From the sequence record NC_007603.1: DNA of 46,219 nt. One strand, given 5' to 3'. This DNA comes from Escherichia phage Rtp. The position numbers and the translations under genes are program-made. The notes beneath the pieces were generated by a model. The model did no database searches and was not told the origin of the DNA. It saw only the letters and a program-made list of their open reading frames with translations. This document shows positions 3,503-46,219 of this stretch, one piece after another (positions within the stretch are counted from its first letter, which is position 1; each line of letters starts with the position of its first letter).

Positions 3503-3533
3503 TACCCCATCGAAACTAAACGAGGAAGCGCAA

Positions 3534-6319: not shown

Positions 6320-6364
6320 CACTTTTTGTTAAAAGAAGAGGCCCAATCAATGAGATAATGGGCC
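6317..6364 (+). promoter_or_regulatory. palindrome-promoter cassette (variant TAGCACTTTTTGTTAAAA)
   Basis: TAG shared with the terS stop; 22-bp spacer; GATAAT 6354-6359 inside inverted repeat GGCCCA/TGGGCC. Confidence 0.45.
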
Positions 6365-6387
6365 CAATGAAATAACGAGGTGATGAT

Positions 6388-8428: not shown

Positions 8429-8468
8429 CACAAATTGCTAAACAATGAGGCCACGGATGGCGTATATT
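8426..8468 (+). promoter_or_regulatory. palindrome-promoter cassette
   Basis: TAGCACAAATTGCTAAA shares TAG with the terL stop; 22-bp spacer; TATATT 8463-8468. Confidence 0.5.
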
Positions 8469-8499
8469 TACCTTACACAAACGAGAGGAGAAAAGACAA

Positions 8500-8856
8500 A
8501 TGGCACGCACTTCAAAGGCTGTATATCTTGGCAACAACGATGATGTGTATTATGGTTTCACCGTAGGTAAGGAATATGAGATTGTATCGTATACTGGTGA
8601 TGACCTCATTCTGATCGCTGATGATGATGGCGAATGCCGTGGCATCAATAACGGGGCATTCCACAAGTTCGAACTCTCAGAAACAGAATGCGCAGCCGCA
8701 GCCACTGGCAATAATAAAAGACCAGATCTCAGATATTACATAAACGGACATGAGGTTGATTTACTTGAGTTTGACAAAGTTCGCTCTCACACCCTTGAGC
8801 TTGCCCACCTAGGCGTAAAATGCGACACAATAAAGTTCGAGGTAAAATTCGAGTAA
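8500..8856 (+). CDS. hypothetical protein (118 aa), moron-like insert between terL and portal
   Basis: Own cassette promoter upstream, own terminator downstream; SD GAGAGGAG. Confidence 0.6.
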   Translation: MARTSKAVYLGNNDDVYYGFTVGKEYEIVSYTGDDLILIADDDGECRGINNGAFHKFELSETECAAAATGNNKRPDLRYYINGHEVDLLEFDKVRSHTLELAHLGVKCDTIKFEVKFE

Positions 8857-14776: not shown

Positions 14777-15206
14777 AAACATTGGGAGTGTAGTTACGTT
14801 TGAGAAATCTATTGCTGACTGGATTGACAGAGCGGAGGATGGTTTTGGGATTGTGGTATCCAATACGGTTATCAAGACAGCAAACGCAATTGTTGACCTT
14901 TCACCCGTCGATACCGGCAGATTCAAGGCTAACTGGCAAATCTCCGCAAACTCACCAGCTCAACAGTCACTCAATGAGTACGACCAGACTGGCGGCCAGA
15001 CCAAAACATATCTCGCCAGGCAAGCCAGAGCAGTCGCCAACTCAAAAGCTACTAGTGTTATTTATATCACTAACCGACTTGATTACGCAGCCGACCTTGA
15101 GTATGGGGCTTCAAACCAAGCTCCAGCTGGTGTTTTAGGTGTGGTGCAAGCGAGGCTTGGCAGGTATTTCCAGGAAGCGGTGGAGGAGGCTCGTCGTGCA
15201 ATATGA
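14769..15206 (+). CDS. putative neck / tail completion protein
   Basis: ATG 14769 overlaps the previous gene end; ORF track 14592..15206 trimmed. Confidence 0.5.
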   Translation: MARNIGSVVTFEKSIADWIDRAEDGFGIVVSNTVIKTANAIVDLSPVDTGRFKANWQISANSPAQQSLNEYDQTGGQTKTYLARQARAVANSKATSVIYITNRLDYAADLEYGASNQAPAGVLGVVQARLGRYFQEAVEEARRAI

Positions 15207-16297: not shown

Positions 16298-16303
16298 ATT
16301 GCA

Positions 16304-16346
16304 TAGCACTTTTTGCTAAAGCGCTTATTAAAATTTGCTGTATATT
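16304..16346 (+). promoter_or_regulatory. palindrome-promoter cassette inside the tail module
   Basis: TAGCACTTTTTGCTAAA; 22-bp spacer; TATATT 16341-16346; leader TACCTTATCGAAACGAAA. Confidence 0.5.
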
Positions 16347-16379
16347 TACCTTATCGAAACGAAATGAGAGATTAAAGAA

Positions 16380-16766
16380 ATGAAAGCAATCATCGCAATT
16401 ATGGCAACCTTGTTACTTGCTGGATGCAACTCAGATAAAGTAAAGACACTCAACGTTGACCTCACTGCAAACGAATGCAAGAACATCGTATACAACGCAA
16501 CGGTTAACAATGAATCATTTACTCATATTTCATTCAAATACCCAGATCTAAAGGATGCCGTTATGTACGTATCGCACATTGAATGCACGAAAACTGTTAG
16601 CAACTTTACACGTGGTGTTGTGATTGAGCGCACTGCAACATTGGCAAAGGTATCAAAGCCTAGTGACGCTTCAATTGAGATGGTTTATACTAAGCTCTAC
16701 AGTTTAGAAGGTTTCGCTAAGGAAGTTGGCGAGAAGCTGGCTTACTCACGCGTTGTTATGAAATAA
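16380..16766 (+). CDS. putative lipoprotein (128 aa), moron within the tail gene cluster
   Basis: Signal peptide with lipobox LAGC (MKAIIAIMATLLLAGCNSD); own cassette promoter upstream. Confidence 0.6.
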   Translation: MKAIIAIMATLLLAGCNSDKVKTLNVDLTANECKNIVYNATVNNESFTHISFKYPDLKDAVMYVSHIECTKTVSNFTRGVVIERTATLAKVSKPSDASIEMVYTKLYSLEGFAKEVGEKLAYSRVVMK

Positions 16767-17454: not shown

Positions 17455-20220
17455 ATGGCAACAAATGAATTAGCCGGAATCACACTAGCCGTAGACGTCT
17501 CGCAGGTAGACAGGGGAACGCAATCCCTACAAAAGTTTAGGCAGGCAAACCAGCAAGCCGCTTCCGGCATTAGTGAATTCGTCAATGCTGAGCAGGTTGC
17601 TAAAATCCAGGCGAGGGATACCGCTCGCGCACTGGCTGAACAGCAAGCATCTTTAGCAAGGCTGCAAACAGCTATTGATCCAACTGCGGCAAAGTTTCGC
17701 AAGCTACAAGAGGCTGCGGTAGGTCTTGATAAGGCATTTGCTGCTGGCGTAGTTCCTGATGAGGAGTTTTTCCGCTTAGGCGAAGCTCTAGAAACCCAAA
17801 ACGCAAGACTTGCACGCTCCAGAGCAGCCCTTACCGAAGAAGGTAGAGCGGCAGCGCAGGCAGCAAAGGATAAGGCAAGGGCAAAGGCTGAGGCAGATAG
17901 ATTCATCGCATCACTGCAACGCCAGGCTCAAGCTGCGACATTGACGCGCGAGGAGTACTTAAAGTTACAGGCAGCACAACTTGGTGTATCCGCAGAGGCG
18001 ACACCATTAATTAACCAGATTAGCACTGCAACCCAGAGAACTGTTGAAAATCTTGGCAGGCAAGCAGCGGCATTTCAGAAATCAGGATTAAGCGCCGGGC
18101 AATACAAGAATGCCATATCTCAACTACCGGCGCAGATTACTGATATTGGCACGTCGCTTGCTGGCGGCATTCCGATTTGGCTTATTGCAATTCAGCAGGG
18201 TGGTCAGATTAAGGATAGCTTTGGCGGCATTGCTAATACTGCGAGATTCCTCCTTTCTTATCTCAACCCGCTCACAGTAGCCGCTGGTGTTCTTGGTGCT
18301 GGCTTTGCTTACGCTGCGGTAAGCATTTACCAGAGCGAATCTGCAATAAAGGCAGCAAGAAAAGCGGTTGAGGAAACGCTTGGAGTCACGGATGAGGCGG
18401 CTAGGCAGCTAAGCATTAGCATCGCCAAGATTTCTGAGGCCTCGGGAAAGACAGCTGAAGATATCGCGAAGTCATTCGTATCAACCCGTGACGGAGCGCA
18501 AGAAGCAATTCTGAAGCTGATTGATGTTGGTGTTAGTTACGATGAAGCTAGGGAGCTTGTGGAGCGTTACAAGAATGCATCAAACTTTACCCAGGTTAAC
18601 GCGCAAATTGAGCAGCACAGACTTGAGGCTGCAAAGATTCAGGATAGCTGGTTCGAGAATGCTATGGCCGTTAGCTACTACAATGATGTTGCAGTGCCGG
18701 GGCTGGTTAACTCGCCATTAACCAATGTATCAGCAAGAAACAACGCAGCAATTCAGGAGTTTGCTATCCTTCTTGAGAAGGATGTAAACAAGGCTCTAAT
18801 TGATGGAAACCGATACGTTGCTGAACAAGTTGATTTGATTGGCAAGGAATATCTGGCACTTGATCGCGTTGCTGGAGCGGAGAAGTCACTTGCAGACGCA
18901 AGAAAACAGGCCGCAGCAATTGCAAGGAGCGGTAATGCGGAAGCTATTGCTCAAGCTAACAGAGTAATTCAGTTAAGGCAGCGTGAACTTGACGAGGCAA
19001 TTAAGGCAGAGAAAGAAAGAAATAAACCAGCAAAAACGAAAGCACCAAAGGAAGCTAGAGACCTTACCATTAATTATGAGTCGGGAGTCCTCGCTCTGGA
19101 GGCTCAGTTAAGGTTGCTTCAGAATGTAGGAAGTCAGACAAAGGCCATCAGCACTGAGCGGAGAAAGCTACTTGAGGAGGAAGCTAAGTTTGCAATCCTT
19201 GAGGAGCGCCAGGCGGCTGGTACAATCGGCAGAGAGCAGGCCAGACTTCTTCTTGAGAAAGACAAAGTTCTCGAGTTGGCCAGGCAGAAGGCTGAGCTAG
19301 GTGATCAGATTGTTTTGCAGGAACGCGCAAATAAGCTAGCTGAAGACAATAGGAAGAAGACTCTTCAGATTAACAATGAGGCAAATAACATTGATTTGGG
19401 TGCTGGTTTGTCATCTCGAGAGCAGCAGAGGGCTAAAGAGATTCAGGCTCTTCAATCCAATCAGGTTAATGCTGGTGGCTCTCTCGATGACGTCGATTTC
19501 CAGCAATTACTGGAAGCGAGAAAGCAGTACTACAAGGATGAGGATGCTCTTAGGGCAGACTGGAAAGCTGGTGTGACTTCAACTCTCGCTGACTTGACTG
19601 AGAAGTACACTGACTACAATCAGATTGCTAATGATTTAACTGTTGCGGCATTCGACGGGATAACAGAGCAAATTACAAACCTTGTAACCACTGGTGAGAC
19701 GAACTTTAGGGAGTTTACAGCAAGCATCCTGAAAATGATTGCGAAGATTGCAACTCAGTTACTTTTGGTTAAGGCCATCGAATCAACATTGACTAGCTTT
19801 GGTGGTGGGGGAGGTAACGCGTTTGGCTCATTTGCATCTGCCATAGGTTTTGCTGGTGGCGGTTACACTGGCGATGGTGGCAAGTATCAGCCCGCTGGTA
19901 CAGTTCATAAAGGTGAGTTTGTATTCACTAAGGAAGCGACAAGCCGAATCGGTGTTAAGAACCTTTACGCACTAATGAAAGGTTACGCAAGCGGCGGTGT
20001 TGTTGGCGGCCCTTCCGGTTACGCAAATGGCGGCTTAGTTTCTGGTGGCACTAATGTTGATGTTAGTGGCATCACTGTTAACGTGAACTCAGGGGTTGGT
20101 AGCGACCCAGAGCAAGCCAAAGCGTTGCAGAACGGCGTCAAGGCAATCGTAGCGGAAGAGATTGCTCAGTCATTCCAGCAGGGTGGCAAGGCCTATCAGT
20201 ACCTGCGCGGATTCAATTAA
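17455..20220 (+). CDS. tail tape measure protein
   Basis: 921 aa, Ala/Gln/Glu-rich coiled-coil composition, Gly-rich C-terminal region; after the chaperone pair. Confidence 0.9.
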   Translation: MATNELAGITLAVDVSQVDRGTQSLQKFRQANQQAASGISEFVNAEQVAKIQARDTARALAEQQASLARLQTAIDPTAAKFRKLQEAAVGLDKAFAAGVVPDEEFFRLGEALETQNARLARSRAALTEEGRAAAQAAKDKARAKAEADRFIASLQRQAQAATLTREEYLKLQAAQLGVSAEATPLINQISTATQRTVENLGRQAAAFQKSGLSAGQYKNAISQLPAQITDIGTSLAGGIPIWLIAIQQGGQIKDSFGGIANTARFLLSYLNPLTVAAGVLGAGFAYAAVSIYQSESAIKAARKAVEETLGVTDEAARQLSISIAKISEASGKTAEDIAKSFVSTRDGAQEAILKLIDVGVSYDEARELVERYKNASNFTQVNAQIEQHRLEAAKIQDSWFENAMAVSYYNDVAVPGLVNSPLTNVSARNNAAIQEFAILLEKDVNKALIDGNRYVAEQVDLIGKEYLALDRVAGAEKSLADARKQAAAIARSGNAEAIAQANRVIQLRQRELDEAIKAEKERNKPAKTKAPKEARDLTINYESGVLALEAQLRLLQNVGSQTKAISTERRKLLEEEAKFAILEERQAAGTIGREQARLLLEKDKVLELARQKAELGDQIVLQERANKLAEDNRKKTLQINNEANNIDLGAGLSSREQQRAKEIQALQSNQVNAGGSLDDVDFQQLLEARKQYYKDEDALRADWKAGVTSTLADLTEKYTDYNQIANDLTVAAFDGITEQITNLVTTGETNFREFTASILKMIAKIATQLLLVKAIESTLTSFGGGGGNAFGSFASAIGFAGGGYTGDGGKYQPAGTVHKGEFVFTKEATSRIGVKNLYALMKGYASGGVVGGPSGYANGGLVSGGTNVDVSGITVNVNSGVGSDPEQAKALQNGVKAIVAEEIAQSFQQGGKAYQYLRGFN

Positions 20221-20640: not shown

Positions 20641-21396
20641 ATGTTAAGTCCAAAGTTTGAAAATCAGTTGCAAAGTCTTTTCCCTGGCGAGATTGTGACT
20701 CTAATCCAGGTAGACGGGACGGCGTTTGGCTCTCTCGTTTACAACTTCCACAATGAAAACATTTCATATACACCAGAAGAAATAATGCTGGCCCAAATGA
20801 ATGGCGAGCCACTACCAGAGAAGATAATCACATTTCGCGGAGAAGAGTATGGCCCAAGACCTTTCGGTATCTCTGGTATAAATATGACTTCTGACGGCAA
20901 GGCTAACAAGGTCACGTTGACAGTATCAAACGTAGACCAGAGAATTAGCGCACTTATCCGCACCTACAATGGATTGGTTAAAGCAAAGGTTACTATCTGG
21001 ATTACTACGCGCGATAACATCAATGAGGATGGAAGCATTGCCGATGGTGACTATCGCCGATTCGTTTACTTCATTGAGAGACCAAAGCAAGTTGATTACA
21101 AGACGGCATCATTTGAGCTTAGCAGTCCGATGGATATGGATGGTATCTACATTCCTGCGCGACTTGTTCAGTCTGTTTGCTATTGGGCGTCAAGGGGGTG
21201 GTATCGCAGCGGTAATGGCTGCGACTACGCTGGTAATCGTTATTTTGACAAGGATGACAATCCAGTTAATGACCCCTCCTTAGACTTCTGCGCCGGAACT
21301 GTTAATAGCTGCAAGATTAGATTCGGCGAGAATAACCAGCTTTCATTTGGTGGATGCGCGGCTGCAAGCCTGCAAGCTAAAGCTAATCAATCATAG
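20641..21396 (+). CDS. minor tail protein (lambda L-like)
   Basis: C-terminal cysteine cluster (C..C..C..C) as in gpL Fe-S proteins; ORF track 20629 trimmed to ATG 20641 with GGAG SD. Confidence 0.75.
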   Translation: MLSPKFENQLQSLFPGEIVTLIQVDGTAFGSLVYNFHNENISYTPEEIMLAQMNGEPLPEKIITFRGEEYGPRPFGISGINMTSDGKANKVTLTVSNVDQRISALIRTYNGLVKAKVTIWITTRDNINEDGSIADGDYRRFVYFIERPKQVDYKTASFELSSPMDMDGIYIPARLVQSVCYWASRGWYRSGNGCDYAGNRYFDKDDNPVNDPSLDFCAGTVNSCKIRFGENNQLSFGGCAAASLQAKANQS

Positions 21397-21441
21397 CACT
21401 TATTGCTAAGAGGATAGCTCAATATTGCGCTATCCTATAAT
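21394..21441 (+). promoter_or_regulatory. palindrome-promoter cassette (27-bp spacer variant)
   Basis: TAGCACTTATTGCTAAG shares TAG with the L stop; inverted repeat GGATAGC/GCTATCC; TATAAT 21436-21441. Confidence 0.45.
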
Positions 21442-21463
21442 CTCTTAAATTGGGGGTTAAAAT

Positions 21464-21979
21464 ATGAATTGGCATGATTACTTTAGATATGAAGACGGCA
21501 AGTTATACTGGATTAGCTTTCCAAACCCAGAGCAGACAAGGAGCGTAAAGATAGGAGATGTTGCTGGATACAAACACCCTGACAACAAGGGTTACATTAG
21601 GGTTCAAGTTATGGGTAAGATGCTAAGGGTCCATCGCGTGATATGGGAAATGCATAACGGAAAAATACCAGAAGGCATGGAGATTGACCACATAAATGGG
21701 ATTAGATCAGACAACAGAATTGAAAACCTAAGAATTGTTAATGGTCTTGAGAACATGAAAAATAAGGGGATTTATAAAAACAACAAAACTGGATTTGTTG
21801 GGGTTGAGAAAATTAAAGCAAACGGAAAGTACAGGGCAAGCATAAGAGTTAATAAAAAACTTATTTTTCTAGGTGAGTATATTTCAATTGAAGATGCCAT
21901 TGACGCTAGAAAGAAAGCTGAATGTGAATACCTTTTCCATAAGAATCACGGAGTTAGAAATGCTTACACCAAAAGTTAA
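21464..21979 (+). CDS. HNH endonuclease with AP2 domain (homing endonuclease-like), paralog of 6388..6864
   Basis: HRVIWEMHNGKIPEGMEIDHINGIRSDNRIENLRIV motif; inserted between L-like and K-like tail genes. Confidence 0.8.
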   Translation: MNWHDYFRYEDGKLYWISFPNPEQTRSVKIGDVAGYKHPDNKGYIRVQVMGKMLRVHRVIWEMHNGKIPEGMEIDHINGIRSDNRIENLRIVNGLENMKNKGIYKNNKTGFVGVEKIKANGKYRASIRVNKKLIFLGEYISIEDAIDARKKAECEYLFHKNHGVRNAYTKS

Positions 21980-27687: not shown

Positions 27688-28000
<313 letters not shown>

Positions 28001-28087
28001 TCGTATACACGTAACCGATGTAACTCGATGTATACAATCTCATCCGCGGAAAATGATATACGCGCTGTTACGCTAATTTACGCATTG

Positions 28088-30394: not shown

Positions 30395-30826
<432 letters not shown>

Positions 30827-33738: not shown

Positions 33739-33803
33739 TGTGTAAAGTCTCCATTTGTAAAATAGCACGAATTGCTAAGTTGGATTGTAGCATCTTTCAG
33801 GCA

Positions 33804-33828
33804 TAAAAAAACCTCCCGAGGGAGGTTA
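33804..33828 (-). terminator. rho-independent terminator (minus strand)
   Basis: Minus-strand CCTCCC-TCG-GGGAGG plus T7, overlapping the primase stop. Confidence 0.6.
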
Positions 33829-34749
33829 GTTTAGCAAGTCTTTGGCTTTGTACACTTTCTTGCGTATTCCTGTTTTGAATGACTTCCCGTCATTAGGTAT
33901 CACCACATCAACATTGCGATCATCAGCGGCAATAAGTATATCAGTATCACAATCGCGGCAAGCAACCCTAAACTTCCTTGACCTGTCGCGGTGGATGACC
34001 ATTTCCACGTTGTAAGAGGAGAAAGCAACAAACACTTCGCGACCACCTGTAGCCAAGTGAACACGTACACCATCAATAAAATTATCGACAATATAAGTAT
34101 AGCTACCATCCTGCTTAGAACCAATAACGGAAACAGAATCACGTGTGTAATCACCAGCAAGGAATTTAACATTTGAATCTCCATCAATAAACATTAAGTT
34201 GCAGAACTCATCACCAAGACCATCCTCGTAAACCATTGAGCAGGGTACGGCATGAATCATTGAGCCATCCTTAGCTATGCCAACATCGAATCCATCATCA
34301 AGATAAATACCTTCATATGTTGTGAGTGGGCTTGATTCAACTCTTACAGTCCGATCCATGACTTCAAGAACTTTTTCATGATCTACCTGTGCGCCCATTT
34401 TGTAACGCTGAGTCCTTGATGCTTGCTTATTTGCCTTATTAACCACCTCTACAGGGATAAGGTTTAACCACTCACCGAGAACATCTATACATTCACTGAA
34501 TGACTCCCCCCTCATCTTTTGTAACCACAGAATTCCATCGCCTGAGCCACACTGGTTGCAGATAATGCCACCATCACCTTCTTTGCTAACCTTGTTAGTC
34601 CATCGTGCTCGGTCGTTTCCTCCACAATAAATACATGGCTGATGCTTTTTGGTCTGGAAGAATTTTGGGTCTGCGCCGCAGATATTGATAAGTGCCTTAT
34701 CCCACAGGCCGCGCATTCTTGGTAAAACCTCTTTCTTATCGTAGTGCAT
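33826..34749 (-). CDS. putative DNA primase (zinc-ribbon type)
   Basis: N-terminal CIYCGG-x-DR...C-x-QCG-x-GDG zinc-binding motif resembling P4-type primase zinc ribbons. Confidence 0.5.
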   Translation of the reverse strand: MHYDKKEVLPRMRGLWDKALINICGADPKFFQTKKHQPCIYCGGNDRARWTNKVSKEGDGGIICNQCGSGDGILWLQKMRGESFSECIDVLGEWLNLIPVEVVNKANKQASRTQRYKMGAQVDHEKVLEVMDRTVRVESSPLTTYEGIYLDDGFDVGIAKDGSMIHAVPCSMVYEDGLGDEFCNLMFIDGDSNVKFLAGDYTRDSVSVIGSKQDGSYTYIVDNFIDGVRVHLATGGREVFVAFSSYNVEMVIHRDRSRKFRVACRDCDTDILIAADDRNVDVVIPNDGKSFKTGIRKKVYKAKDLLN

Positions 34750-34807
34750 ATCAATCTATCTCTGAACAAATAAAAAAGGATGCACCGATTATGGCACATC
34801 CAATTCC

Positions 34808-35281
34808 TTACTCTTTAGCTTTTCGTGCTGCCTCATTAGCGGCCTTGATCTTTCTCCATGAACGACACTCTGGTTTGGTTGCTAACTCGGACTCAGTAAC
34901 CACACGCAGCATGTGACGCTTCTTGCACCGTAATGTCAGCGGCTTTCCGTTGCCGTCGAATTGCAGGTCTGGTCGGCAGAATGTAGCGCGAAAACCTTCT
35001 CCATTTCGCTTGTAGTAGTTGTGAGAAAGCTGAGCGCCGCGAGCAGATATCATTCCACGCTTAAACCATTCCTCTACAGCCTGTGGTGTTACCTTTAACT
35101 GCTTTGCGATATTCGCCTTTGTGCCGAAGAAATCAAGAACAATCTCCAGTCGCGCGCGCAACCCTGCCCTTACTTCATCTTTCAAAACGTAGTAACCTGA
35201 AGGTCGTTTTCGTTGTTTTTTGTCTTCAGTGCGGACAGTTCCGTTATTACCGTTGATTGTTCTCTTGTCGACTGTATTCAT
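34808..35281 (-). CDS. putative HTH DNA-binding protein
   Basis: IAKQLKVTPQAVEEWFKRG resembles a Cro/C1-type helix-turn-helix; basic N-terminus. Confidence 0.5.
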   Translation of the reverse strand: MNTVDKRTINGNNGTVRTEDKKQRKRPSGYYVLKDEVRAGLRARLEIVLDFFGTKANIAKQLKVTPQAVEEWFKRGMISARGAQLSHNYYKRNGEGFRATFCRPDLQFDGNGKPLTLRCKKRHMLRVVTESELATKPECRSWRKIKAANEAARKAKE

Positions 35282-35294
35282 TTCATTACCTCAA

Positions 35295-35336
35295 TAGCAT
35301 TTTTTGTTAAAAGTCATTCTGATTTGATGGTAGTAT
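35295..35336 (+). promoter_or_regulatory. palindrome-promoter cassette (variant TAGCATTTTTTGTTAAAAG)
   Basis: Motif plus TAGTAT at 35331-35336 upstream of the helicase gene. Confidence 0.4.
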
Positions 35337-35382
35337 TGTACTCAATTAAACGCTACAAGACAATTTTTATAGGAATTTAGAT

Positions 35383-37377
35383 ATGTTGCCTATCGAGAAG
35401 CTGGTTGCTAACTTTGATAAAGAAAGAATCAAACAGATTCAGAAGGATTACCAGTTTGGGGAGATAACCCCATACGAGTTCCAGTGCGTAACATTTGATG
35501 CTATCGGAAAGGCTATTGGGAAGTATGAGGCCCCATTTATAGCAGACCTTTCAGTTTCTGCTGGTAAGACAATCATTCTTGCCATGATTGGTAAGCGCAT
35601 GGAGCAATTGGGATTGCCTTATATGGTTCTTTCTCGCCAGTCAGAGATAATCAGCCAGAACTCAGAGGAGCTTCGTAATTTCGGCATCCGTAATAGCGTC
35701 TATTGCGCTGGCCTTAATGTTAAATCAGTTTACTACCCAACCATAGTTGCCAGTGAGGGCACGGCGGCTAATGGCTTGTTTAAGGGGCTTGGTGACTATG
35801 TTCCGGCAGTTATCGCTATAGATGAGTGTCATCATATGGACCATATGGATATTGTTGAAGCAGAGGAGAACGAAGAAACATTTGAACAAATGAGCACAAA
35901 GAAAGGCGAAATGGTTTTTAAGGATGGCGTAAACACGGGATTGCTTGGCACTGGTCGTGCGCAGTACACGCTAATCATTACTGAAATGAAACGTCGTTGT
36001 CGTGAGAGGTATGGTCGTGAGCTTCGTATATTCGGTCTAACTGGCAGCCCATATCGTAACAATGATCATATCGTCGTTAGCAACCCAAACATCCGTGGCT
36101 TCTGGCGCAAAACAGTTATTCAGGTCCCAACCAATTACCTGGTTGATTTAGGATTCGTGGTACCAACAGTTTACGGCGAGGTTGGTGATTTGGGTTATGA
36201 CCTTGCGGAGTTTGCGCCAGACGGAAGTGATGGTGTGAAAGACTTTGGCAAGAAAGAAATGGACGCCATGCAGGAAAAGATTCATCAAAACCAGTCCATG
36301 ACGCAAAAGATTATGCAATTTGCTGCAAAGTTCATGGAGACTCGCAACGCTGCGCTTGTGACATGTGCCGGTAAACGTCATTGTGAGGAAGCAGCAGCAG
36401 CGCTTCCTGAGGGTGTAACCTGGGCTATAGTAACTGACTCTACTGGTGAGAAAAAGCGTAGGGAGATTCTTTCTGACGCAGTTGAAGGTAAGTATAAATT
36501 CATATTTCAGATCGGTTGTCTCACAACTGGCGTGAACGTCCCGCCATGGGATACATCAATCATTCTGCGCAAAGTTGGTAGTATCACGCTTCTTATTCAG
36601 CTTTTGGGGCGAGGCATGCGAATACTTAAGAAGAAACATAAGGAAATGGGGATGGTCAAGGATGATCACGTGGTGCTAGACTTTGCTGGCACTCTTGATG
36701 ACATGGCAGAATTATACTTTGATCCAATCATAGAGGAGGTGCAGGATCAGAAATTCAAGTCCTCTCGTAAAGTTGGGGATAAGTCAAGAGTATGTCAGGC
36801 CTGTGGCTATAAAAACCCCCCACTTGCTCGTCGTTGCAATAACGTAATTGACGGTAAACGATGTGAGCATTTTTTTACATTTCGCTTGTGTGAAGATATA
36901 GAGGACCCGCAGACAAAATCTATTATTAAGAAAGGTTGTGGTGAGAAGAATGATATTGCCGCTAAAAACTGTCGGTGCTGCGGAGAGATGCTAATAGACC
37001 CGAATGCAAAGTTATCTGGGAAAATGTATCGTAAAGGCGACTGGTTGCGAGTCTACGACTTTAAGATTGGATTAACAAAGAATCAATCAGGGATTGTTGC
37101 CTCATACGAGGTCATGGCTCATAGTGGTGATAGGTTCCGGGCCTATGAGACGTTTTTTCCAGAGTCAGACCATCGCGTTTGCTCTGTAAGATGGAAATCA
37201 TTTTGCTCGACTCACATAGAGAGCAGGACTGAGGCTTTTAGAATTGGCAGGTTGCGTAATGCTAAGATGATTATGACTAATGCTCACCTTTTCCGTGCGC
37301 CATTAAGGATTACACACCGTAAGAACCAGAAAGGCCAGGATATTATCGCCAATAAATCTTTTACTATGGAGGATTGA
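35383..37377 (+). CDS. SF2 (DExH-type) helicase with C-terminal zinc-ribbon cysteines
   Basis: Walker A SAGKT, DECHH motif, multiple CxxC pairs near the C-terminus. Confidence 0.75.
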   Translation: MLPIEKLVANFDKERIKQIQKDYQFGEITPYEFQCVTFDAIGKAIGKYEAPFIADLSVSAGKTIILAMIGKRMEQLGLPYMVLSRQSEIISQNSEELRNFGIRNSVYCAGLNVKSVYYPTIVASEGTAANGLFKGLGDYVPAVIAIDECHHMDHMDIVEAEENEETFEQMSTKKGEMVFKDGVNTGLLGTGRAQYTLIITEMKRRCRERYGRELRIFGLTGSPYRNNDHIVVSNPNIRGFWRKTVIQVPTNYLVDLGFVVPTVYGEVGDLGYDLAEFAPDGSDGVKDFGKKEMDAMQEKIHQNQSMTQKIMQFAAKFMETRNAALVTCAGKRHCEEAAAALPEGVTWAIVTDSTGEKKRREILSDAVEGKYKFIFQIGCLTTGVNVPPWDTSIILRKVGSITLLIQLLGRGMRILKKKHKEMGMVKDDHVVLDFAGTLDDMAELYFDPIIEEVQDQKFKSSRKVGDKSRVCQACGYKNPPLARRCNNVIDGKRCEHFFTFRLCEDIEDPQTKSIIKKGCGEKNDIAAKNCRCCGEMLIDPNAKLSGKMYRKGDWLRVYDFKIGLTKNQSGIVASYEVMAHSGDRFRAYETFFPESDHRVCSVRWKSFCSTHIESRTEAFRIGRLRNAKMIMTNAHLFRAPLRITHRKNQKGQDIIANKSFTMED

Positions 37378-37378
37378 T

Positions 37379-37798
37379 ATGAATATTACAGACAAAGTTG
37401 ATTACATTGAGTTTTACCCTGGCCCGGTTAAGTCATGCCCTAAAGAGGATGATGAACAAATCTTTTGCTCTGATTGGGTTAAGTATAACTACCCAGAGAT
37501 GGTATTTTTCCACTGCGTGAATGAGGGTAAGAAAACCATTGGTCAAGCAAGAAAAGATCAGGCTAAGGGTCTCCTTAAGGGAGTGTCAGACTGTATGTTT
37601 CTTATACCTGAATCTATCCGAGGCAAATACCCTTTCGGAGCTATAGAGCTAAAGAGAGCAGGAAAAACGCAGGCAAGCCCAGTCAGTGAGGAGCAGAAGG
37701 CTTTCCTTAAAAGCGTAATGGAATCAGGTGGTTTTTCCGCAGTTGCCTACGGCAGGGAAGGGTTCCTTGCAGCATTCAAAGAAATGATTTCAAAATAG
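37379..37798 (+). CDS. VRR-NUC-like nuclease
   Basis: 139 aa; SD...IELK pattern resembling a PD-(D/E)XK / VRR-NUC core; immediately follows the helicase. Confidence 0.45.
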   Translation: MNITDKVDYIEFYPGPVKSCPKEDDEQIFCSDWVKYNYPEMVFFHCVNEGKKTIGQARKDQAKGLLKGVSDCMFLIPESIRGKYPFGAIELKRAGKTQASPVSEEQKAFLKSVMESGGFSAVAYGREGFLAAFKEMISK

Positions 37799-37838
37799 CA
37801 CTAATTGCTAAAGGCGATTTTAAAAGATGGGGTATAGT
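37796..37838 (+). promoter_or_regulatory. palindrome-promoter cassette
   Basis: TAGCACTAATTGCTAAAG shares TAG with the upstream stop; 22-bp spacer; GGGGTATAGTTACCCC. Confidence 0.5.
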
Positions 37839-37874
37839 TACCCCATCGAAACGAAACGAAGAGAGAGAAACAAA

Positions 37875-38075
37875 ATGGCTACTATCTACACTGGAAAATT
37901 CTACGAGTCACGCAAAACTGGTTATATTTATGAGTTGCAAATCACTGAGGATGGTTATGTTTTGGTTGATATCGAAGATTGCACTTACGCATTCGAGGTT
38001 AGCCCGACCTACAAGGATGACTTGGAAACTGTTAAAAACGAATTTGGAGAAAAATTTAATGAGGTATCAGAATAA
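37875..38075 (+). CDS. hypothetical protein (66 aa)
   Basis: ORF track 37827 trimmed to ATG 37875 behind the cassette leader. Confidence 0.45.
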   Translation: MATIYTGKFYESRKTGYIYELQITEDGYVLVDIEDCTYAFEVSPTYKDDLETVKNEFGEKFNEVSE

Positions 38076-38296: not shown

Positions 38297-38481
38297 TTGG
38301 CATCTGCGTAAAAACAAATGGCTTCTTTACACTTCTTGAGGATTATGAAATTAATTTCGATTCAAATGAAATAACAGTGTTAAGCGATGATGGGTGCTAT
38401 TGGTTCCTTAGTTATCAAGGTGATGGTTATTACGGTTGCAGAGATTCAGGCGGAAAAGAGGTTATTTTCTTAGTCGAATAG
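38293..38481 (+). CDS. hypothetical protein (62 aa)
   Basis: ATG 38293 with GGAGG SD and ATGA overlap; TAG stop shared with the palindrome. Confidence 0.45.
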   Translation: MIGICVKTNGFFTLLEDYEINFDSNEITVLSDDGCYWFLSYQGDGYYGCRDSGGKEVIFLVE

Positions 38482-38521
38482 CACTTTTTGTTAAAAATCA
38501 AATCCATGGATGGATTATATT
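38479..38521 (+). promoter_or_regulatory. palindrome-promoter cassette
   Basis: TAGCACTTTTTGTTAAAAA; 22-bp spacer with inverted repeat ATCCATGGATGGAT; TATATT. Confidence 0.45.
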
Positions 38522-38551
38522 AAACACATCAACAACGCAGAGGTTTGAGAG

Positions 38552-38677
38552 ATGAAAATTGTAGACAGAGAGATGTTTGAGATCGCACAGATATACGCAA
38601 ATGATGCTGTAAAAACTGGCTCTGATTATTGCTGGATGTGCGCTAAAGAATACCTGAAAATGGCCTACGGCTTATGA
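38552..38677 (+). CDS. small ORF (41 aa)
   Basis: ATG 38552 behind leader SD AGAGGTTTGAGAG; ATGA coupling downstream. Confidence 0.35.
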   Translation: MKIVDREMFEIAQIYANDAVKTGSDYCWMCAKEYLKMAYGL

Positions 38678-38924: not shown

Positions 38925-39176
38925 ATGTTGGGTTTAGATTTCCAGCCAGATCATTACGACTTAGTATATGGTCAAAGTGGTGCAAAGTTTAGAGCGATAC
39001 CTATTGCTGACTGGTTTCCTCCTGATTATGTGGATGTGAACGCAAAAACTAAAGACGGGAAGTGGGTTCAGATTTACTACTCCCCAGCATGCGGAAACCT
39101 TTGCATGACTGACCTTGATCAGAAGTTAGCAATTAGTGCGGAAGTTATCGACTACTGGTTGAAAGAAGTTGAATGA
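38925..39176 (+). CDS. hypothetical protein (83 aa)
   Basis: ORF track; SD AAGGA upstream. Confidence 0.45.
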   Translation: MLGLDFQPDHYDLVYGQSGAKFRAIPIADWFPPDYVDVNAKTKDGKWVQIYYSPACGNLCMTDLDQKLAISAEVIDYWLKEVE

Positions 39177-39258: not shown

Positions 39259-40395
39259 ATGGCAACTGCAAAGATTACTAACGAGCAGCTTCTTGAAGAA
39301 CTAGCAAACGGCATGACAAACAAGGCAATCGCAGAGAAGTACGGAATGAACATTCGCAACGTTGAATTGCGTCGTAGTAAACTGGCGAAGAGTGGAGAAT
39401 TGCACGGAAACCCGGGCATCAAGAAGTTAGTTCCTGACGGTTATTTGGTTAAGGGAACCTCCACGATGATTGATGCTGATGGTAACGAAAAGCTGCGCTG
39501 GGTTAAAACATCTGTAGATAATGAGAGACTTGAGGTTTTAATGGAGCAAGCTCGCGAGGCATTTTGCTCTGATTTGCCAAAGGCTACTCCATCTGAATCA
39601 CCTAATGTTAACTTTGATGATAACACGCTTGCGATGTATCCAGTTTTTGATTTGCACATTGGGGCGATGGCTCACAAACATGAGTGCGGCGAAAACTATG
39701 ATACAGCAACAGCAGAGAAGGTTATGAATGGGTTCTTTGACTACGCTGTAGATAAGGCGCCAAACTCTAAGAATGCTGTATTGGTATTGGGTGGCGATTT
39801 CCTGCATTACGACTCCCTGGAGGCTAAAACCCCGGCCTCAGGCCATATCTTAGATTCTGACAGTCGTTACGCCAAGATTGTTTATGTTGCAATCCGCTCG
39901 GTCAGGCGTGCAATTTCTCGAATGATGGAAAAGCATCAAGTTATTGATATTAAAGTAATAAGTGGGAATCACGACGAGGCAGGAATGGTTTGGCTCCGCG
40001 CTGCACTTGCTGCGTTTTATGAAGATGAGCCTCGCGTAAATGTTGATATTAGCCCTGCCGCAATGATGATGACCAGCTTTGGAACTACGCTTATTGGATA
40101 CACTCACGGGCACCAAATGCGGAAAGCCGATACTAGACTAACTGTTATGGCAACTGATTTTCGTAAGTTATTTGGTCAAAGTGAGTATGTTTACACACAT
40201 AGTGGCCACTGGCATTCGCAGAAGATTACAGAAACAAACTTGGGAATTGATGAGGTTCATGGTCAGCTTGGAAGTCCAGACGCATACTCTGCTAATGGTG
40301 GGTGGCGCTCACAAAGACAGGCTGCGGTAATCGTCTACCACAAAGAATTTGGTGAAGTTGGACGATTTATTTGCCGCCCTAAAATGTTTAGCTAA
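39259..40395 (+). CDS. metallophosphoesterase (calcineurin-like) with N-terminal HTH-like region
   Basis: DLHIG (DxH), GGDFLHYD (GDxxD) and GNHDE motifs in canonical order. Confidence 0.6.
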   Translation: MATAKITNEQLLEELANGMTNKAIAEKYGMNIRNVELRRSKLAKSGELHGNPGIKKLVPDGYLVKGTSTMIDADGNEKLRWVKTSVDNERLEVLMEQAREAFCSDLPKATPSESPNVNFDDNTLAMYPVFDLHIGAMAHKHECGENYDTATAEKVMNGFFDYAVDKAPNSKNAVLVLGGDFLHYDSLEAKTPASGHILDSDSRYAKIVYVAIRSVRRAISRMMEKHQVIDIKVISGNHDEAGMVWLRAALAAFYEDEPRVNVDISPAAMMMTSFGTTLIGYTHGHQMRKADTRLTVMATDFRKLFGQSEYVYTHSGHWHSQKITETNLGIDEVHGQLGSPDAYSANGGWRSQRQAAVIVYHKEFGEVGRFICRPKMFS

Positions 40396-40438
40396 TAGCA
40401 CTTTTTGCCTAACTCATGCCGTAAAAATGCGGCATAAT
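40396..40438 (+). promoter_or_regulatory. palindrome-promoter cassette
   Basis: TAGCACTTTTTGCCTAA; inverted repeat ATGCCG/CGGCAT in the 22-bp spacer; CATAAT. Confidence 0.45.
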
Positions 40439-40468
40439 CACCAAATCTAAACAAACGAGGATTCAATC

Positions 40469-40642
40469 ATGGTTAAATTGTTTTGCATTAAGAACGCATC
40501 TAAGACACTTCCGTTCACTGAGGATAAGCCATATAGCGGTGAGTATCAGGGTGACGGATACTACAAAATTTATGGTGACGACATGACGTGTATTCTTGCG
40601 CCGATTGATGGTTCGCTTGTTGAATTTATTATCGAAGATTAG
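40469..40642 (+). CDS. small ORF (57 aa)
   Basis: ATG 40469 with SD ACGAGGA; followed by a strong terminator. Confidence 0.4.
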   Translation: MVKLFCIKNASKTLPFTEDKPYSGEYQGDGYYKIYGDDMTCILAPIDGSLVEFIIED

Positions 40643-41855: not shown

Positions 41856-42189
41856 AGCTAAATAACTCGTCGTCAGTCATTGTTCCTACATTCATAATCT
41901 CTTTTATGTACTTGCTCTCATACCCGCTAAGTGCCTCGAAGTTGAAATCAAATGGCCTTTTCAAACTCCCCTTGCTAACAAACTCACCACACTTACCATC
42001 AATGTATCCAGCAGTTAACATCTTTGCGCAGAACTCCTTTGAAGCAGCACTGCAAAACTCTCTATGCGATAAACCCGATGCCTTGCTGAACCTCTCAGAG
42101 TCCTTATGTTGGTATATGAACCGCGCCAAATGCTGGCGCGTAAAGTATGAATACGACTCACAGAAGCGGTATAAATCCAAAATGAACAC
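41854..42189 (-). CDS. hypothetical protein (111 aa)
   Basis: ORF track; last gene of the leftward block. Confidence 0.5.
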   Translation of the reverse strand: MFILDLYRFCESYSYFTRQHLARFIYQHKDSERFSKASGLSHREFCSAASKEFCAKMLTAGYIDGKCGEFVSKGSLKRPFDFNFEALSGYESKYIKEIMNVGTMTDDELFS

Positions 42190-42192
42190 TTA

Positions 42193-43776
42193 TCACCCCA
42201 ATAGTCGTGGATTAACGTAAACTTTATCACCAATCAGGCACGTATAGTTTTTCTCATCAAGCATTGGCAGTAAGCGATCTTTAATCTTTGTCATTACACC
42301 AGCTTGAGCCTCAAACGGCTTAACCTTTCGAGCTGCCTCATACAATGAACGAATACCAACTACACCTTTCCCGTTCTTGCCTTGCTTGATCAGTATATCA
42401 ACCAGCTTGCTCATCTCAGCATGGTCGCCAGCGTGACCAGCAGCGTTAGCTGATGACAGATACGTCTTGCTCAGCTCCTGGAACATAATCACAGCTTCTT
42501 GCATGGTATCAAGTTCAATCTCTCTGGATTTCTGTGGACTACCGCCATTTGGGTTGAACCAGTTGCGCACAGTGTGAAGAACAGCTGCAATCCTGATGGC
42601 CTGCTTATCGAACTTACCCAACGCGCCACGTAACATTGTGTGTGAATACTTCCCGCCATCTGCAAGGTGAGGCTCCATCTCCTGACGCGCACGGTTGAGG
42701 TATTTCATCGCTGAGTTGCTCACTGTCAGCTTAACATCTTGCTCATTCATTATTTCATGAACTAAACGGAAGTAATCTGCCTTCAGCTCGCCATTAATTG
42801 GTTCGTATGTTGAGTTGCCATTCTCATCAACGAATACGCGCTCACCAAGGAATGATTTTTCACGAACCAAAAGGAAACGTTCAGATACACCGATACCACG
42901 CGCACCAGCATTCATGATGGCGTTGATTGTTTCATCCTGCGCAATTACAGAGATGCAACCCATAGCAACGAAACTCATGTTATTTTCTGCGTTGGCACGC
43001 GCGATAGATACGTTACCGGCATCCCATGCCTTAAGCACAAGTTCGCTGTTCGTTTTCTTAGAGCCATCACCATAGGTCATGCCAAGAAGTGAATTGACGC
43101 TAGTTGCTTCATCCGAGATTACAGCGAAGTTACCCTGTCGGTTGTTTATTCGCGCAAGACCTTCCGGAGTGGTATCTGACACTGGAAATACGATATCGCA
43201 CATCTTTTCCAGCTTTTCCTCTAAATCCTCTTTTTCCTCAAACAGCGCCGCCATCTCTGATGGTGACTTCTCCTGCTTCATCTCTTTTGATAATACAGAT
43301 AGTTTTGCCATGATCTTCTTGCGCTCACGCTTTCTCAATTCATTCAGTCGCTCAGTCTCAGCAATCATTGGAGCAATTGAAAGTGAGTTGATGGCTGATT
43401 TACCTGTCGATGGTGGTTGGCTTGTCACGACATAAAGCGAAGTTGGCTGCTGAGTTCCATGATACTCAACAGTAAAACGGCCCAGCATGGCAGCGGAAAT
43501 ACACCCCAGAAAGTGCATATAAGCTGAAGACTCAGGGAACTGAACAGAACGGGCAATATTGGCTGAAAGCTTACCAACAACATCAATGTCATTACCGAGT
43601 GAGATTACGGGATACTTGTCATTAGCCGCATCAATCTCGACTGGTGCTTTCCAGAATGATTGAGACTGACGATAGCCATTAGCATTAATAGCGACGCGCA
43701 GGGGTGGGAGGTTGTCTGCGGCAGCAATTGCCATAACCTGTTCAACAGATAGTTTATCTTCGTTGAAATCAAACAT
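42193..43776 (-). CDS. P-loop NTPase (putative replication / primase-associated ATPase)
   Basis: 527 aa; Walker A-like PPSTGKS; cassette promoter variant upstream; function not resolved. Confidence 0.55.
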   Translation of the reverse strand: MFDFNEDKLSVEQVMAIAAADNLPPLRVAINANGYRQSQSFWKAPVEIDAANDKYPVISLGNDIDVVGKLSANIARSVQFPESSAYMHFLGCISAAMLGRFTVEYHGTQQPTSLYVVTSQPPSTGKSAINSLSIAPMIAETERLNELRKRERKKIMAKLSVLSKEMKQEKSPSEMAALFEEKEDLEEKLEKMCDIVFPVSDTTPEGLARINNRQGNFAVISDEATSVNSLLGMTYGDGSKKTNSELVLKAWDAGNVSIARANAENNMSFVAMGCISVIAQDETINAIMNAGARGIGVSERFLLVREKSFLGERVFVDENGNSTYEPINGELKADYFRLVHEIMNEQDVKLTVSNSAMKYLNRARQEMEPHLADGGKYSHTMLRGALGKFDKQAIRIAAVLHTVRNWFNPNGGSPQKSREIELDTMQEAVIMFQELSKTYLSSANAAGHAGDHAEMSKLVDILIKQGKNGKGVVGIRSLYEAARKVKPFEAQAGVMTKIKDRLLPMLDEKNYTCLIGDKVYVNPRLLG

Positions 43777-43962
43777 TACTTCTCTCCGTGTTGTTTCTGA
43801 GCGGCCATTATATCAACGACCGCTTATAATTCATTATCAATTTGTGCTATTAATTGTTCTTAATCCACTTTAGACACATCCAGGTGCCAGCAACGTAAAG
43901 CGCTAGCTTTGCTAACTCGTACGCTAAGTGTGTAAATAAAGCAAAATTAGAAATAAGCTCAC

Positions 43963-44713: not shown

Positions 44714-44886
44714 TAGTGAGCCTTGTAGTTGGTAGAGAATTTAGCACCTTCGAATTTTGAAGGGCGGCGGTTAGCGTTAATTGCTTCGTAAGTTTTTTTA
44801 GTGTCGCGAGCATCAATCACTTCAACAACCATCATGGCAACCATCGGGAAAACTACTGCGATAACCATCAGAGTTAAAATAATCAT
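44713..44886 (-). CDS. small membrane protein (57 aa)
   Basis: ORF track 44713..44934 trimmed to ATG 44886 (the upstream part is the translated cassette leader); hydrophobic segment IILTLMVIAVVFPMVAMMVV. Confidence 0.45.
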   Translation of the reverse strand: MIILTLMVIAVVFPMVAMMVVEVIDARDTKKTYEAINANRRPSKFEGAKFSTNYKAH

Positions 44887-44922
44887 TTTCTTTACCTTTC
44901 GTTGTTTCGTTTCGATGGAAAG

Positions 44923-44966
44923 ATAATACCGCATCCTTGCGATTCTGTTTTAGCAATTCGTGCTAT
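44923..44966 (-). promoter_or_regulatory. palindrome-promoter cassette (minus strand)
   Basis: Minus-strand TAGCACGAATTGCTAAA; 22-bp spacer; TATTAT; leader TTTCCATCGAAACGAAACAACG. Confidence 0.5.
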
Positions 44967-45749: not shown

Positions 45750-45875
45750 TCCCTCATCTCGTTTAACTTAGTGTTTTTAGAGGTTCGCTTTGATGCCATC
45801 GCTGCTTGAGTGGTTATCCTGTTCCTTCAGGAGGCCGTTCGGCTCTTTACTTCCCACCCCGTTCTCTATGTACTA

Positions 45876-45918
45876 ACTATACTTCTTTTCTTCACTGCCG
45901 TTTTAACAAAAAGTGCTA
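45876..45918 (-). promoter_or_regulatory. palindrome-promoter cassette (minus strand)
   Basis: Minus-strand TAGCACTTTTTGTTAAAA; 22-bp spacer; TATAGT. Confidence 0.45.
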
Positions 45919-46117
45919 TTTACTAACTTTCTACTTCATTTACTTCTTTCGAGGAACCCGGTCAGACTTTGCTGCCGGAGAAGGTGTCTGGGAGTTTACC
46001 TATTCGGAAGTGACTCAACGTGCCCTTTCTCAACACTTGCCGGCATTTTTCATCCGGACGATTCGACCTCTGGGAGGCAGCTACTTGGCGTTCGCTTCAC
46101 TGCTTCCTTGAGATACA

Positions 46118-46159
46118 TATTACCAGTTTCTCGATTTATGTCTTTAGCAAAAAGTGCTA
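46118..46159 (-). promoter_or_regulatory. palindrome-promoter cassette (minus strand), second tandem copy
   Basis: Minus-strand TAGCACTTTTTGCTAA, about 20-bp spacer, TAATAT. Confidence 0.4.
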
Positions 46160-46219
46160 TTCGTTGGATTTATGGATTGTTGAAGATATTGCAATGATTC
46201 ACATGATTATTGCACGTAT

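Follow-up and report, generated by a model that had tools for sequence, protein, structure and literature searches.

The repeated cassette of phage Rtp

The genome of Escherichia phage Rtp (sequence record NC_007603.1) was analyzed over its whole length of 46,219 nt, referred to below as the window. It contains 21 copies of a conserved box, ATAGCAC-N3-TTGYTAAA, and 20 of them form part of a complete cassette. In these complete cassettes, a spacer of constant length separates the box from a -10 hexamer (TAtAnT), and further downstream come a conserved A, a conserved A-rich leader, a Shine-Dalgarno (SD) sequence and a start codon. The focal cassette (37796-37877, plus strand) overlaps the end of a nuclease gene, leads into a gene of 66 amino acids (aa), and reads TAGCACTAATTGCTAAA-GGCGATTTTAAAAGATGGGG-TATAGT-TACCCCATCGAAACGAAACGAAGAGAGAGAAACAAA-ATG. 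Its parts are as follows.

37795-37814, plus strand: 20-bp marbox-like box ATAGCACTAATTGCTAAAGG, an exact match to the published marbox GCAHWWWWTGYYAAA
37796-37798, plus strand: TAG overlapping the box and serving as stop codon for the VRR-NUC nuclease gene upstream (37379-37798; Pfam VRR_NUC match)
37798-37812, plus strand: core of the box, GCACTAATTGCTAAA
37826-37847, plus strand: hairpin GATGGGGTA-TAGT-TACCCCATC enclosing the -10 hexamer (-16.0 kcal/mol, z = -4.06 against dinucleotide shuffles)
37833-37838, plus strand: -10 hexamer TATAGT, 20 nt past the AAA of the box, with G at -14
37845-37877, plus strand: predicted +1 (A at 37845) and leader ATCGAAACGAAACGAAGAGAGAGAAACAAA with the SD sequence GAGAGAG
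37875-37877, plus strand: ATG of the 66-aa gene, at offset 79 of the cassette

An earlier note on this DNA had listed 18 cassettes, and each of them was found at its given coordinates. Three copies were added, namely a box-only copy at 33763 (plus strand), a variant ATCGCACGAATTGGTAAA-N20-TATAAT at 1368 (plus strand), and a cassette at 34830 (minus strand) upstream of the primase gene. With at most one mismatch, TAGCA-N5-TGCTA matches the whole window 19 times, compared with 1.8 matches expected by shuffling, and the composite of marbox, N20 and TAnnnT was found 18 times where 0.48 are expected. All 20 complete cassettes are directed at a downstream gene or transcript, the distance from the beginning of the box to the start codon being 70-88 nt.

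In an ungapped alignment of 18 copies, TAGCA, T9, and A15 are invariant and the neighboring positions nearly so, which together gives the block A-TAGCAC-nWW-TTG-Y-TAAA. The -10 hexamer follows at a fixed distance (T37 A38 T39 .. T42), exactly 20 nt past the AAA of the box, and an A occupies offset 49 in 14 of the 18 copies. The spacer, described earlier as an almost invariant 22 bp, is constant in length and variable in sequence. Similarly, the leader TACCCCATCGAAACGAAACGAGAG represents a consensus and not a fixed sequence, as just three copies match it with three or fewer mismatches, while single positions within it are conserved. Two further statements of the earlier note need revision. The TAG within the box was thought to be the upstream stop codon in most copies, but it is the in-frame stop of a long upstream open reading frame (ORF) in only nine of the 21; several other copies have a TAA 3-4 nt upstream of the box or within it. 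Moreover, the cassettes do not organize early and accessory genes alone, being also located upstream of the portal region and of tail, recombination, helicase, and primase genes.

A promoter-like element without a -35 hexamer

The pattern was searched for in this genome and in T1-like relatives, and the element recurs in phage T1, Klebsiella phage MezzoGao, and Pantoea phage AAS23. The resulting comparison set contains 65 cassettes, of which 20 come from the window, 19 from T1, 14 from MezzoGao, and 12 from AAS23; counts out of 65 below refer to this set. The hexamer shows T in 52, A in 62, T in 53, and the final T in 62 cassettes. It is preceded by a G at -14, two bases upstream of the hexamer, in 52/65, and by TGn in 24/65. 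In the presumed start context, 51 cassettes have A at offset 49 and 44 have C at offset 48; the conserved A probably marks the start site.

At 16-18 bp from the hexamer, TTGACA is matched at best in 2-3 of its six positions in 55/65 cassettes, the same as in random sequence. This result is in line with the earlier remark that no -35 hexamer is recognizable at 17 bp, and a plain sigma-70 promoter with a -35 was rejected on these grounds. A -35-like TTGCTA or TTGTTA is present 22 bp upstream of the hexamer, too distant for a -35. Because the hexamer has the features of a -10 and no -35 accompanies it, the cassettes look like -35-less promoters with the conserved box in place of the -35. The center of the box is located at about -40.5 relative to the predicted +1, a class II activator position, which agrees well with the value of about 42 bp upstream given in the earlier note.

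Several other promoter and protein-binding signals were considered and set aside. CCCCAT as a sigma-32 -10 finds a fitting -35 in one copy only and is not universal. TTGCTAAA, taken as an extended -10, has no T at -7. The consensus sequences of the UP element, the T4 Mot box, IHF, and Fis misfit in position or sequence.

The box matches the marbox consensus

The published marbox, 5'-GCAHWWWWTGYYAAA-3', is bound by a monomer of MarA, SoxS, or Rob, and hence it is asymmetric and has an orientation (PMC6900184). The 46-kb window contains nine exact copies of this sequence and seven copies with one mismatch. Among the 65 cassettes, the variation tracks the degeneracy of the marbox, with A or T only at the W positions and C or T at the Y positions. 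A longer marbox of 20 positions, reportedly given by Martin et al. in 1999 as AYnGCACnnWnnRYYAAAYn, extends beyond the search pattern, and the flanks of the phage boxes fit its initial A-Y, with A at -1 in 58/65 and Y at 0 in 60/65. The logo of the 65 cassettes fits this 20-mer at every specified position except the last Y.

The earlier note described the box as a perfect or near-perfect palindrome. The palindrome does not seem to be the recognition unit: it is perfect in only about half of the copies, with the pair at offsets 2/12 complementary in just 37/65, and the conserved box extends asymmetrically beyond it. The pair at offsets 5/9 is complementary in 0/65 and the pair at -1/15 in 3/65, although all four positions are conserved, and the AAA(A) at the 3' side of the box has no mirror at the 5' side. 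Moreover, the Pantoea phage shows variation in the left TA (AAAGCAC, GCAGCAC, GATGGCAC), while GCAC and TAAA are fixed. The palindrome is thus partial, incidental, and only superficial. An asymmetric box of this kind would be expected for a monomer with a pair of helix-turn-helix (HTH) motifs, and not for the operator of a dimer.

Class II geometry

According to the literature, class II marbox promoters carry a forward marbox that overlaps the -35 region and is centered between -36 and -55; in micF, the marbox is placed at about -41 and described as 'CACT-7X-AAA'. Reading the micF promoter from E. coli K-12 gives GCACTGAATGTCAAA-N20-TAGAAT-N7-+1, where +1 is the annotated first base of MicF, and the phage cassettes give GCACTTTTTGCTAAA-N20-TATAGT-N6-A. 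The orientation of the box and its distance to the -10 are therefore the same in both. In the fumC promoter of E. coli, ATGGCACGAAAGACCAAACA is located about 21 nt from TAATAA. The 20 complete phage cassettes all show the forward orientation, with GCAC distal and AAA proximal, and the distance of 20 nt to the -10 is kept throughout.

The cassettes resemble the class II promoters of the E. coli mar/sox/rob system (micF, fumC, lpxC P2, lpxL P1, and others) in having the asymmetric box GCAHWWWWTGYYAAA in forward orientation with its center at about -41, a weak or absent -35, and a sigma-70-type -10, with the same 20-nt gap as in micF. They differ from these promoters in number and context, since the phage carries about 20 per 46 kb, which apparently serve an entire virulent phage genome and not a host stress regulon. 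In addition, the phage boxes are nearer to the consensus than many host marbox sites, the phage spacer often contains a hairpin, and a conserved leader follows the phage promoter.

Conservation among phages and the candidate binding protein

The Rtp genome belongs to Drexlerviridae. Its best match is Escherichia phage ZL19 (95% identity), and ACG-M12-like phages match as well. In T1, the marbox alone gives 22 matches with at most one mismatch (1.2 expected), and the composite gives 19 with at most two mismatches (0.47 expected). The Klebsiella Webervirus MezzoGao has 14 composite matches against 0.22 expected, whereas the Pantoea Sauletekiovirus AAS23 has 17 matches to the pattern with at most three mismatches, 12 of them judged to be cassettes, against 2.99 expected. 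The major capsid proteins of T1, MezzoGao, and AAS23 are only about 50% identical to that of the window, yet the box is unchanged. The box has not drifted while the phage proteins have diverged, and its sequence is that of the consensus for a host factor conserved throughout Enterobacterales; together these observations point to a host factor. Hafnia phage Meifeng was dropped as a distant comparator, as it is an unrelated temperate myovirus with the capsid gene alone in common.

A search of 737 six-frame ORFs of the window with a profile of MarA, SoxS, and Rob, with filters off, found no phage homologue (best E-value 0.07). The Pfam scan of the non-structural proteins likewise found no HTH_18, HTH_AraC, or other AraC-type HTH domain; a faint GerE match is located at the N-terminus of a 378-aa phosphoesterase-like protein. 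In Klebsiella, RamA is described in the literature as the counterpart of MarA, SoxS, and Rob.

Two full boxes with -10-like hexamers are present in T1 in antisense orientation between the capsid and tail genes (14989-15091 and 18753-18855, both minus strand), and could give rise to antisense transcripts.

Hairpins within the spacer

Between offsets 15 and 63 the cassettes fold much more stably than shuffled sequence, with a mean z of -2.8 over 53 cassettes, and z is -2.3 or lower in 10 of the 20 window cassettes with dinucleotide-preserving shuffles. Calling a hairpin at -8 kcal/mol or lower together with z of -2 or lower, 43/65 cassettes contain one, which is GC-rich: 13 hairpins abut the -10 and 30 enclose it, and the remaining 22 cassettes have none. 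The abutting hairpins often take the form CCCGGC-GAAA-GCCGGG-TATTAT and are followed by T-rich sequence, with a mean of 4.2 T in the next 8 nt. Three annotated rho-independent terminators of T1 (38973-39001, 39998-40024, and 41980-42007) overlap cassettes. Judging from these features, the abutting hairpin probably terminates or stabilizes the upstream transcript.

The arms of the 30 enclosing hairpins differ in sequence yet remain complementary (GGGGTA/TACCCC, AAGGCC/GGCCTT, GGGGAA/TTCCCC, AAGGGCA/TGCCCTT, GTAACGTC/GGCGTTAC), and the next 8 nt contain a mean of 0.8 T. Given the missing T-tract, these hairpins do not look like intrinsic terminators, except in the primase cassettes, which have a run of six T. 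In the primase cassette of Rtp, the -10 hexamer CATAAT lies in the loop of a canonical terminator, GGATGTGCC-ATAATC-GGTGCATCC-TTTTTT (34801-34778, minus strand), which ends the gene of a Cro-like regulator. A transcript begun at this cassette would lack the 5' arm of the terminator and would escape termination. The same arrangement of a -10 in a terminator loop was also found in T1 (35898-36000, minus strand) and in MezzoGao (21494-21596, minus strand). As transcripts started at a cassette would be without the 5' arm, the enclosing hairpin would form in read-through RNA only. Our best guess is that it marks or stabilizes the 3' end of upstream messages and leaves the transcript of the cassette itself unaffected. 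An Rfam search with the cassette returned no family.

The discriminator and early leader, TACCCC-ATCGAAAC (offsets 43-56, for example 37839-37852), are kept even in the Klebsiella and Pantoea phages. This conservation exceeds what the SD context needs, and pairing with the spacer accounts for part of it. The region may be an RNase E or translation-enhancer element.

Probable host-activator-dependent promoters and alternative explanations

The arrangement of these parts suggests that the cassettes are probably class II marbox promoters that depend on a host activator. An activator-dependent promoter, instead of a plain sigma-70 promoter, was also the idea favored in the earlier note, and the -10, the missing -35, and the box centered at about -41 lead us to prefer it as well. 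The cassette would act as a compact module for the start of both transcription and translation. A monomer of the MarA/SoxS/Rob family (RamA in Klebsiella) would bind A-Y-n-GCAC-n2-W-n2-R-Y-Y-AAA, and the bound box, centered at about -41 with its GCAC end upstream, would occupy the place of the missing -35. Sigma-70 RNA polymerase would be recruited or held by the activator at a good -10 (TAtAnT, in most cases with G at -14). RNA synthesis would begin some 7 nt further downstream, at the conserved C-A, and the short, A-rich, unstructured leader would supply the SD sequence of the next gene. With about 20 such promoters across the early, replication, structural, and lysis regions, host stress regulators would be needed for, or would boost, most of the transcription of the phage. 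Rob is abundant and made constitutively, while MarA and SoxS are stress-induced; Rob would thus be the likely default activator.

A wider proposal, somewhat less likely than not, is that Drexlerviridae with Escherichia, Klebsiella, and Pantoea hosts have ceded almost all promoter recognition to MarA/SoxS/Rob (and RamA), and that the promoters nested in hairpins are an insulation device. Upstream transcripts would then end or be stabilized at the hairpin, and transcripts begun inside it would escape. Bile salts, salicylate, redox stress, and marR or ramR resistance mutations would in that case raise phage expression and burst. In addition, each incoming genome would bring about 20 near-consensus marboxes, a number that replication multiplies, and these could titrate the activators off the control of efflux pumps and porins.

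T1-like phages are well known for contaminating laboratories and fermenters; they also occur commonly in the gut and are being considered for therapy, and to our knowledge their transcription has never been worked out. Papers on their genomes give just 3-10 'sigma-70 promoters' and a repeat left without explanation. If the promoters do depend on a host activator, phage growth would be linked to the mar/sox/rob/ramA regulon, which controls intrinsic multidrug resistance. This would bear on phage-antibiotic synergy or antagonism, on infection in the bile-rich gut, and on the susceptibility of marR and ramR mutants, and would provide about 60 natural near-consensus class II marbox promoters for studies of activation. 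The cassettes also show an unusual packing of hairpins within the predicted promoters.

The repeat itself has been described before. The 2024 re-annotation of phage TLS by German, Kropinski, Misra, and co-workers, published in Phage, described a direct repeat of 21 nt, aaATAGCACnnnTTGnTAAAA, whose 21 copies follow the direction of transcription and lie about 76 nt upstream of start codons (PMC11447400). It is the same element as the box of the Rtp cassette. Similar repeats were noted in T1, Rtp, and Rogue1, their function being given as unknown, and only three sigma-70-like promoters were reported for the genome. The repeat was suggested to provide stoperators, enhancer sites, or UP elements (PMC11447400). 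Unlike the present analysis, that paper draws no tie to a -10 at fixed distance, to marboxes, or to hairpins (PMC11447400). Other genome papers on T1-like phages list 5-20 predicted sigma-70 promoters and leave the box unmentioned. The searchable literature contains no paper that ties marboxes, MarA, SoxS, or Rob to T1-like phages, and no start-site map of a Drexlerviridae phage. The repeat is thus already described, and reading it as part of a class II marbox promoter appears to be new within the searchable literature.

Several points weigh against a host-activated marbox promoter. T1-like phages multiply readily on laboratory strains that are not under stress. Such strains have little MarA and SoxS, and their Rob is for the most part inactive, so that either the basal level of activator would suffice or the promoters would be partly activator-independent. 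Position 19 of the 20-mer, a Y, is an A in 43/65 cassettes, although micF also has an A there. The set of 65 cassettes was gathered with the 15-mer marbox pattern, and the fit within those 15 positions is therefore partly circular; the evidence independent of it consists of the motif recognized in the earlier note, the flanks, the asymmetry, the geometry, and the shuffles. A phage-encoded candidate for the binding protein also exists, since the genome has a conserved Cro-like HTH protein of 157 aa (34808-35281, minus strand), which corresponds to gp23 of T1, a 'transcriptional regulator'. For no Drexlerviridae promoter does the searchable literature report experiments on start site, binding, or activation. 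Finally, the authors of the TLS study, experts on these phages, did not propose a marbox identity (PMC11447400).

The main alternative takes the box as an operator or activator site of a phage protein, for example this Cro-like protein. Two subunits of the protein would sit as a dimer on the TAGCA-N5-TGCTA dyad at about -42 and turn the cassettes on or off. A dimer would find five-bp arms one helical turn apart, and the dyad is perfect in 37/65 cassettes. The 157-aa protein has a weak match to P22_Cro (24.1 bits against a cut-off of 30.2), and its gene, annotated 'transcriptional regulator', is kept in T1 and in the Klebsiella and Pantoea phages. This divergently oriented gene has a promoter of its own, of the conventional sigma-70 type (TTGTCT-17-TACAAT), and is among the few with a recognizable -35. 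The box, however, is conserved asymmetrically, with C5/T9 never and A-1/A15 rarely complementary and AAA(A) unmirrored, and in the Pantoea phage the left TA varies without co-variation of the right arm. The box also remains undrifted despite phage proteins at about 50% identity, and an operator would have to match a host marbox in sequence, orientation, and spacing by chance. We consider a phage-encoded dimer unlikely for these reasons. The cassettes could also be essentially activator-independent sigma-70 promoters, made of the -10 with G at -14 or TGn, in which case the box would be an UP-like element for the C-terminal domain of the alpha subunit (alpha-CTD) or a scar of recombination or duplication. 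Good -10 hexamers (TATAGT, TATTAT, TATAAT) together with the TGn and G-14 frequencies given above would suit this explanation, as would the enrichment of homology-block ends in cassettes described below (14/64 against 4.9% expected, p = 2e-6), and UP-like elements were among the suggestions of the TLS authors (PMC11447400). The invariant positions of the box contain G and C (GCAC, TTG), unlike the A/T tracts of UP elements, and compared with the UP consensus its T and A tracts are some 5-8 bp too near the -10. Moreover, a motif of 18 positions that keeps its distance constant across genera speaks for recognition of a specific sequence, and the explanation is therefore quite improbable.

A role of the cassette mainly as RNA is less probable still. 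The hairpin and the A-rich leader would form an intercistronic processing or stabilizing site, and the hexamer would be an incidental loop, in line with the strong hairpin in 43/65 cassettes, the co-varying arms of the 30 that enclose the hexamer, and the leader conserved across genera. The 22/65 hairpin-free cassettes nevertheless retain the box, the spacing, and the hexamer, the conservation of TAnnnT is typical of a -10 and not of a loop, the upstream DNA box is left unaccounted for, and Rfam gives no match. An RNA-level role may coexist with the promoter role. The boxes are intergenic and oriented with transcription, as expected for stoperator-like sites comparable to those of mycobacteriophage L5, where a repressor on asymmetric, transcription-oriented sites would block elongation or silence genes, and this was also proposed by the TLS authors (PMC11447400). 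A block to elongation does not account for the strict 20 nt to the -10, the +1 context, and the SD sequence, and the phage is virulent with no repressor evident in the Pfam scan, which makes stoperators highly improbable. The similarity of TAGCACGAATTGCT to the sigma-54 (-24/-12) sequence TGGCAC-N5-TTGC is superficial. The conserved -10 is located 20 nt downstream of the box, where a sigma-54 promoter would already be transcribing, and the chance that the box is such a promoter is close to negligible. The required spacing of GG-N10-GC is also violated, being invariantly AG-N8-GC, which refutes this reading; the first G of GG is an A in 63/65.

Comparison with other phage modules

The cassettes can be compared with two kinds of known phage systems. 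The PeSL and PmSL elements of T4-like phages are likewise reiterated modules of terminator, promoter, SD sequence, and start codon between small genes, and are tied to breakpoints of insertions, deletions, and replacements (PMC2839356, PMC4122927), as the cassettes may be. In PmSL, as proposed for the cassette, an activator box (the Mot box) together with the -10 replaces the -35. The stem-loop of PeSL is placed upstream of a complete -35/N17/-10 promoter, whereas that of Rtp is either nested between box and -10 or surrounds the -10. Moreover, the MotA protein acting at PmSL is phage-encoded, while the Rtp box matches the site of a host activator.

The middle and late promoters of Mu (Mor, C) and the MotA/AsiA middle promoters of T4 are also -35-less, with an activator bound at about -30 to -50. 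Unlike in the reading proposed for Rtp, these phages themselves encode the activators, whose sites are of another sequence and spacing: the distance from the Mot box to the -10 is 11-13 bp, compared with 20 in Rtp.

Distribution of the cassettes and mosaicism

The other copies in the window are listed below.

1367-1446, plus strand: cassette with variant box ATCGCACGAATTGGTAAA, -10 TATAAT, and ATG at 1444
2359-2434, plus strand: cassette with terminator-like spacer hairpin AAAACCGC-TCCG-GCGGTTTT, followed by a very short ORF
3077-3154, plus strand: cassette
3459-3536, plus strand: cassette with box variant TTTTTATTAAA
4027-4103, plus strand: cassette
6316-6390, plus strand: cassette upstream of an HNH-type endonuclease-like gene (6388-6864), with -10 GATAAT inside the hairpin
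8425-8502, plus strand: cassette 3' of the large terminase gene
16303-16382, plus strand: cassette 3' of the major tail protein gene and its terminator
21393-21466, plus strand: cassette upstream of a second HNH-type gene, with an ambiguous -10, either TATCCT at canonical spacing or TATAAT 5 bp downstream
27915-28001, minus strand: cassette with degenerate box TAGCACGAATAGATAAA
29628-29703, plus strand: cassette upstream of the ERF recombinase gene (Pfam scan)
33762-33781, plus strand: box-only copy, perfect box ATAGCACGAATTGCTAAG, with no -10 at the canonical distance
34747-34831, minus strand: cassette upstream of the primase gene, with -10 CATAAT in the terminator loop
35294-35385, plus strand: cassette upstream of the helicase gene
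38478-38554, plus strand: cassette
40395-40471, plus strand: cassette with GCCTAA as box variant; its hairpin abuts the -10 CATAAT
43774-43850, minus strand: cassette upstream of a DUF3987 helicase-like gene (Pfam scan)
44884-44966, minus strand: cassette
45864-45919, minus strand: cassette (box and -10), with no ORF start within about 160 nt downstream
46105-46160, minus strand: cassette (box and -10 TAATAT with TGn), with no ORF after it

When the window is compared with ZL19, 14 of the 64 ends of homology blocks fall within cassettes (±15 nt), which cover 4.9% of the genome (binomial p = 2e-6; one genome pair). Segments replaced relative to ZL19 begin at the cassettes at 3078, 6317, 16304, and 21394, and two of them carry HNH-type endonuclease-like genes. 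This enrichment is consistent with a modular exchange mediated by cassettes, as proposed for the PeSLs of T4-like phages. The two HNH/AP2-like genes (6388-6864 and 21464-21979, both plus strand) are paralogous, both starting with MNWHD.F.Y..G.LY, and are located directly behind cassettes at breaks of the ZL19 homology. Their position suggests that they are mobile and land at the cassettes or travel with them.

The helicase cassette (35294-35385, plus strand) is arranged back-to-back with the conventional promoter of the Cro-like regulator gene at 35335-35363 on the minus strand, the -10 hexamers lying on opposite strands of the same bases. The box-only copy (33762-33781) overlaps the 5' end of a minus-strand gene for a 970-aa tail-fibre-like protein and is followed by a bidirectional terminator (33810-33827). 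It is conserved in ZL19 (position 35560), and may be a relic or a decoy site. At the right end of the genome, the tandem cassettes at 46159 and 45918 (minus strand) are followed by no ORF for more than 100-160 nt and match no Rfam family; they may produce a long leader or a non-coding RNA.

Two further features lie elsewhere in the genome. A tRNA-Arg gene (anticodon TCT; 4893-4969, plus strand) is located among the small genes of the left arm and is the sole Rfam/ARAGORN match in the window. The 143-aa protein encoded at the SSB position (30395-30826, plus strand) has a long glutamine-rich run at its C-terminus, QQNNRQQQQQQQQQQQQRQQPQQQQQ, which gives rise to a spurious TFIIA match in Pfam.

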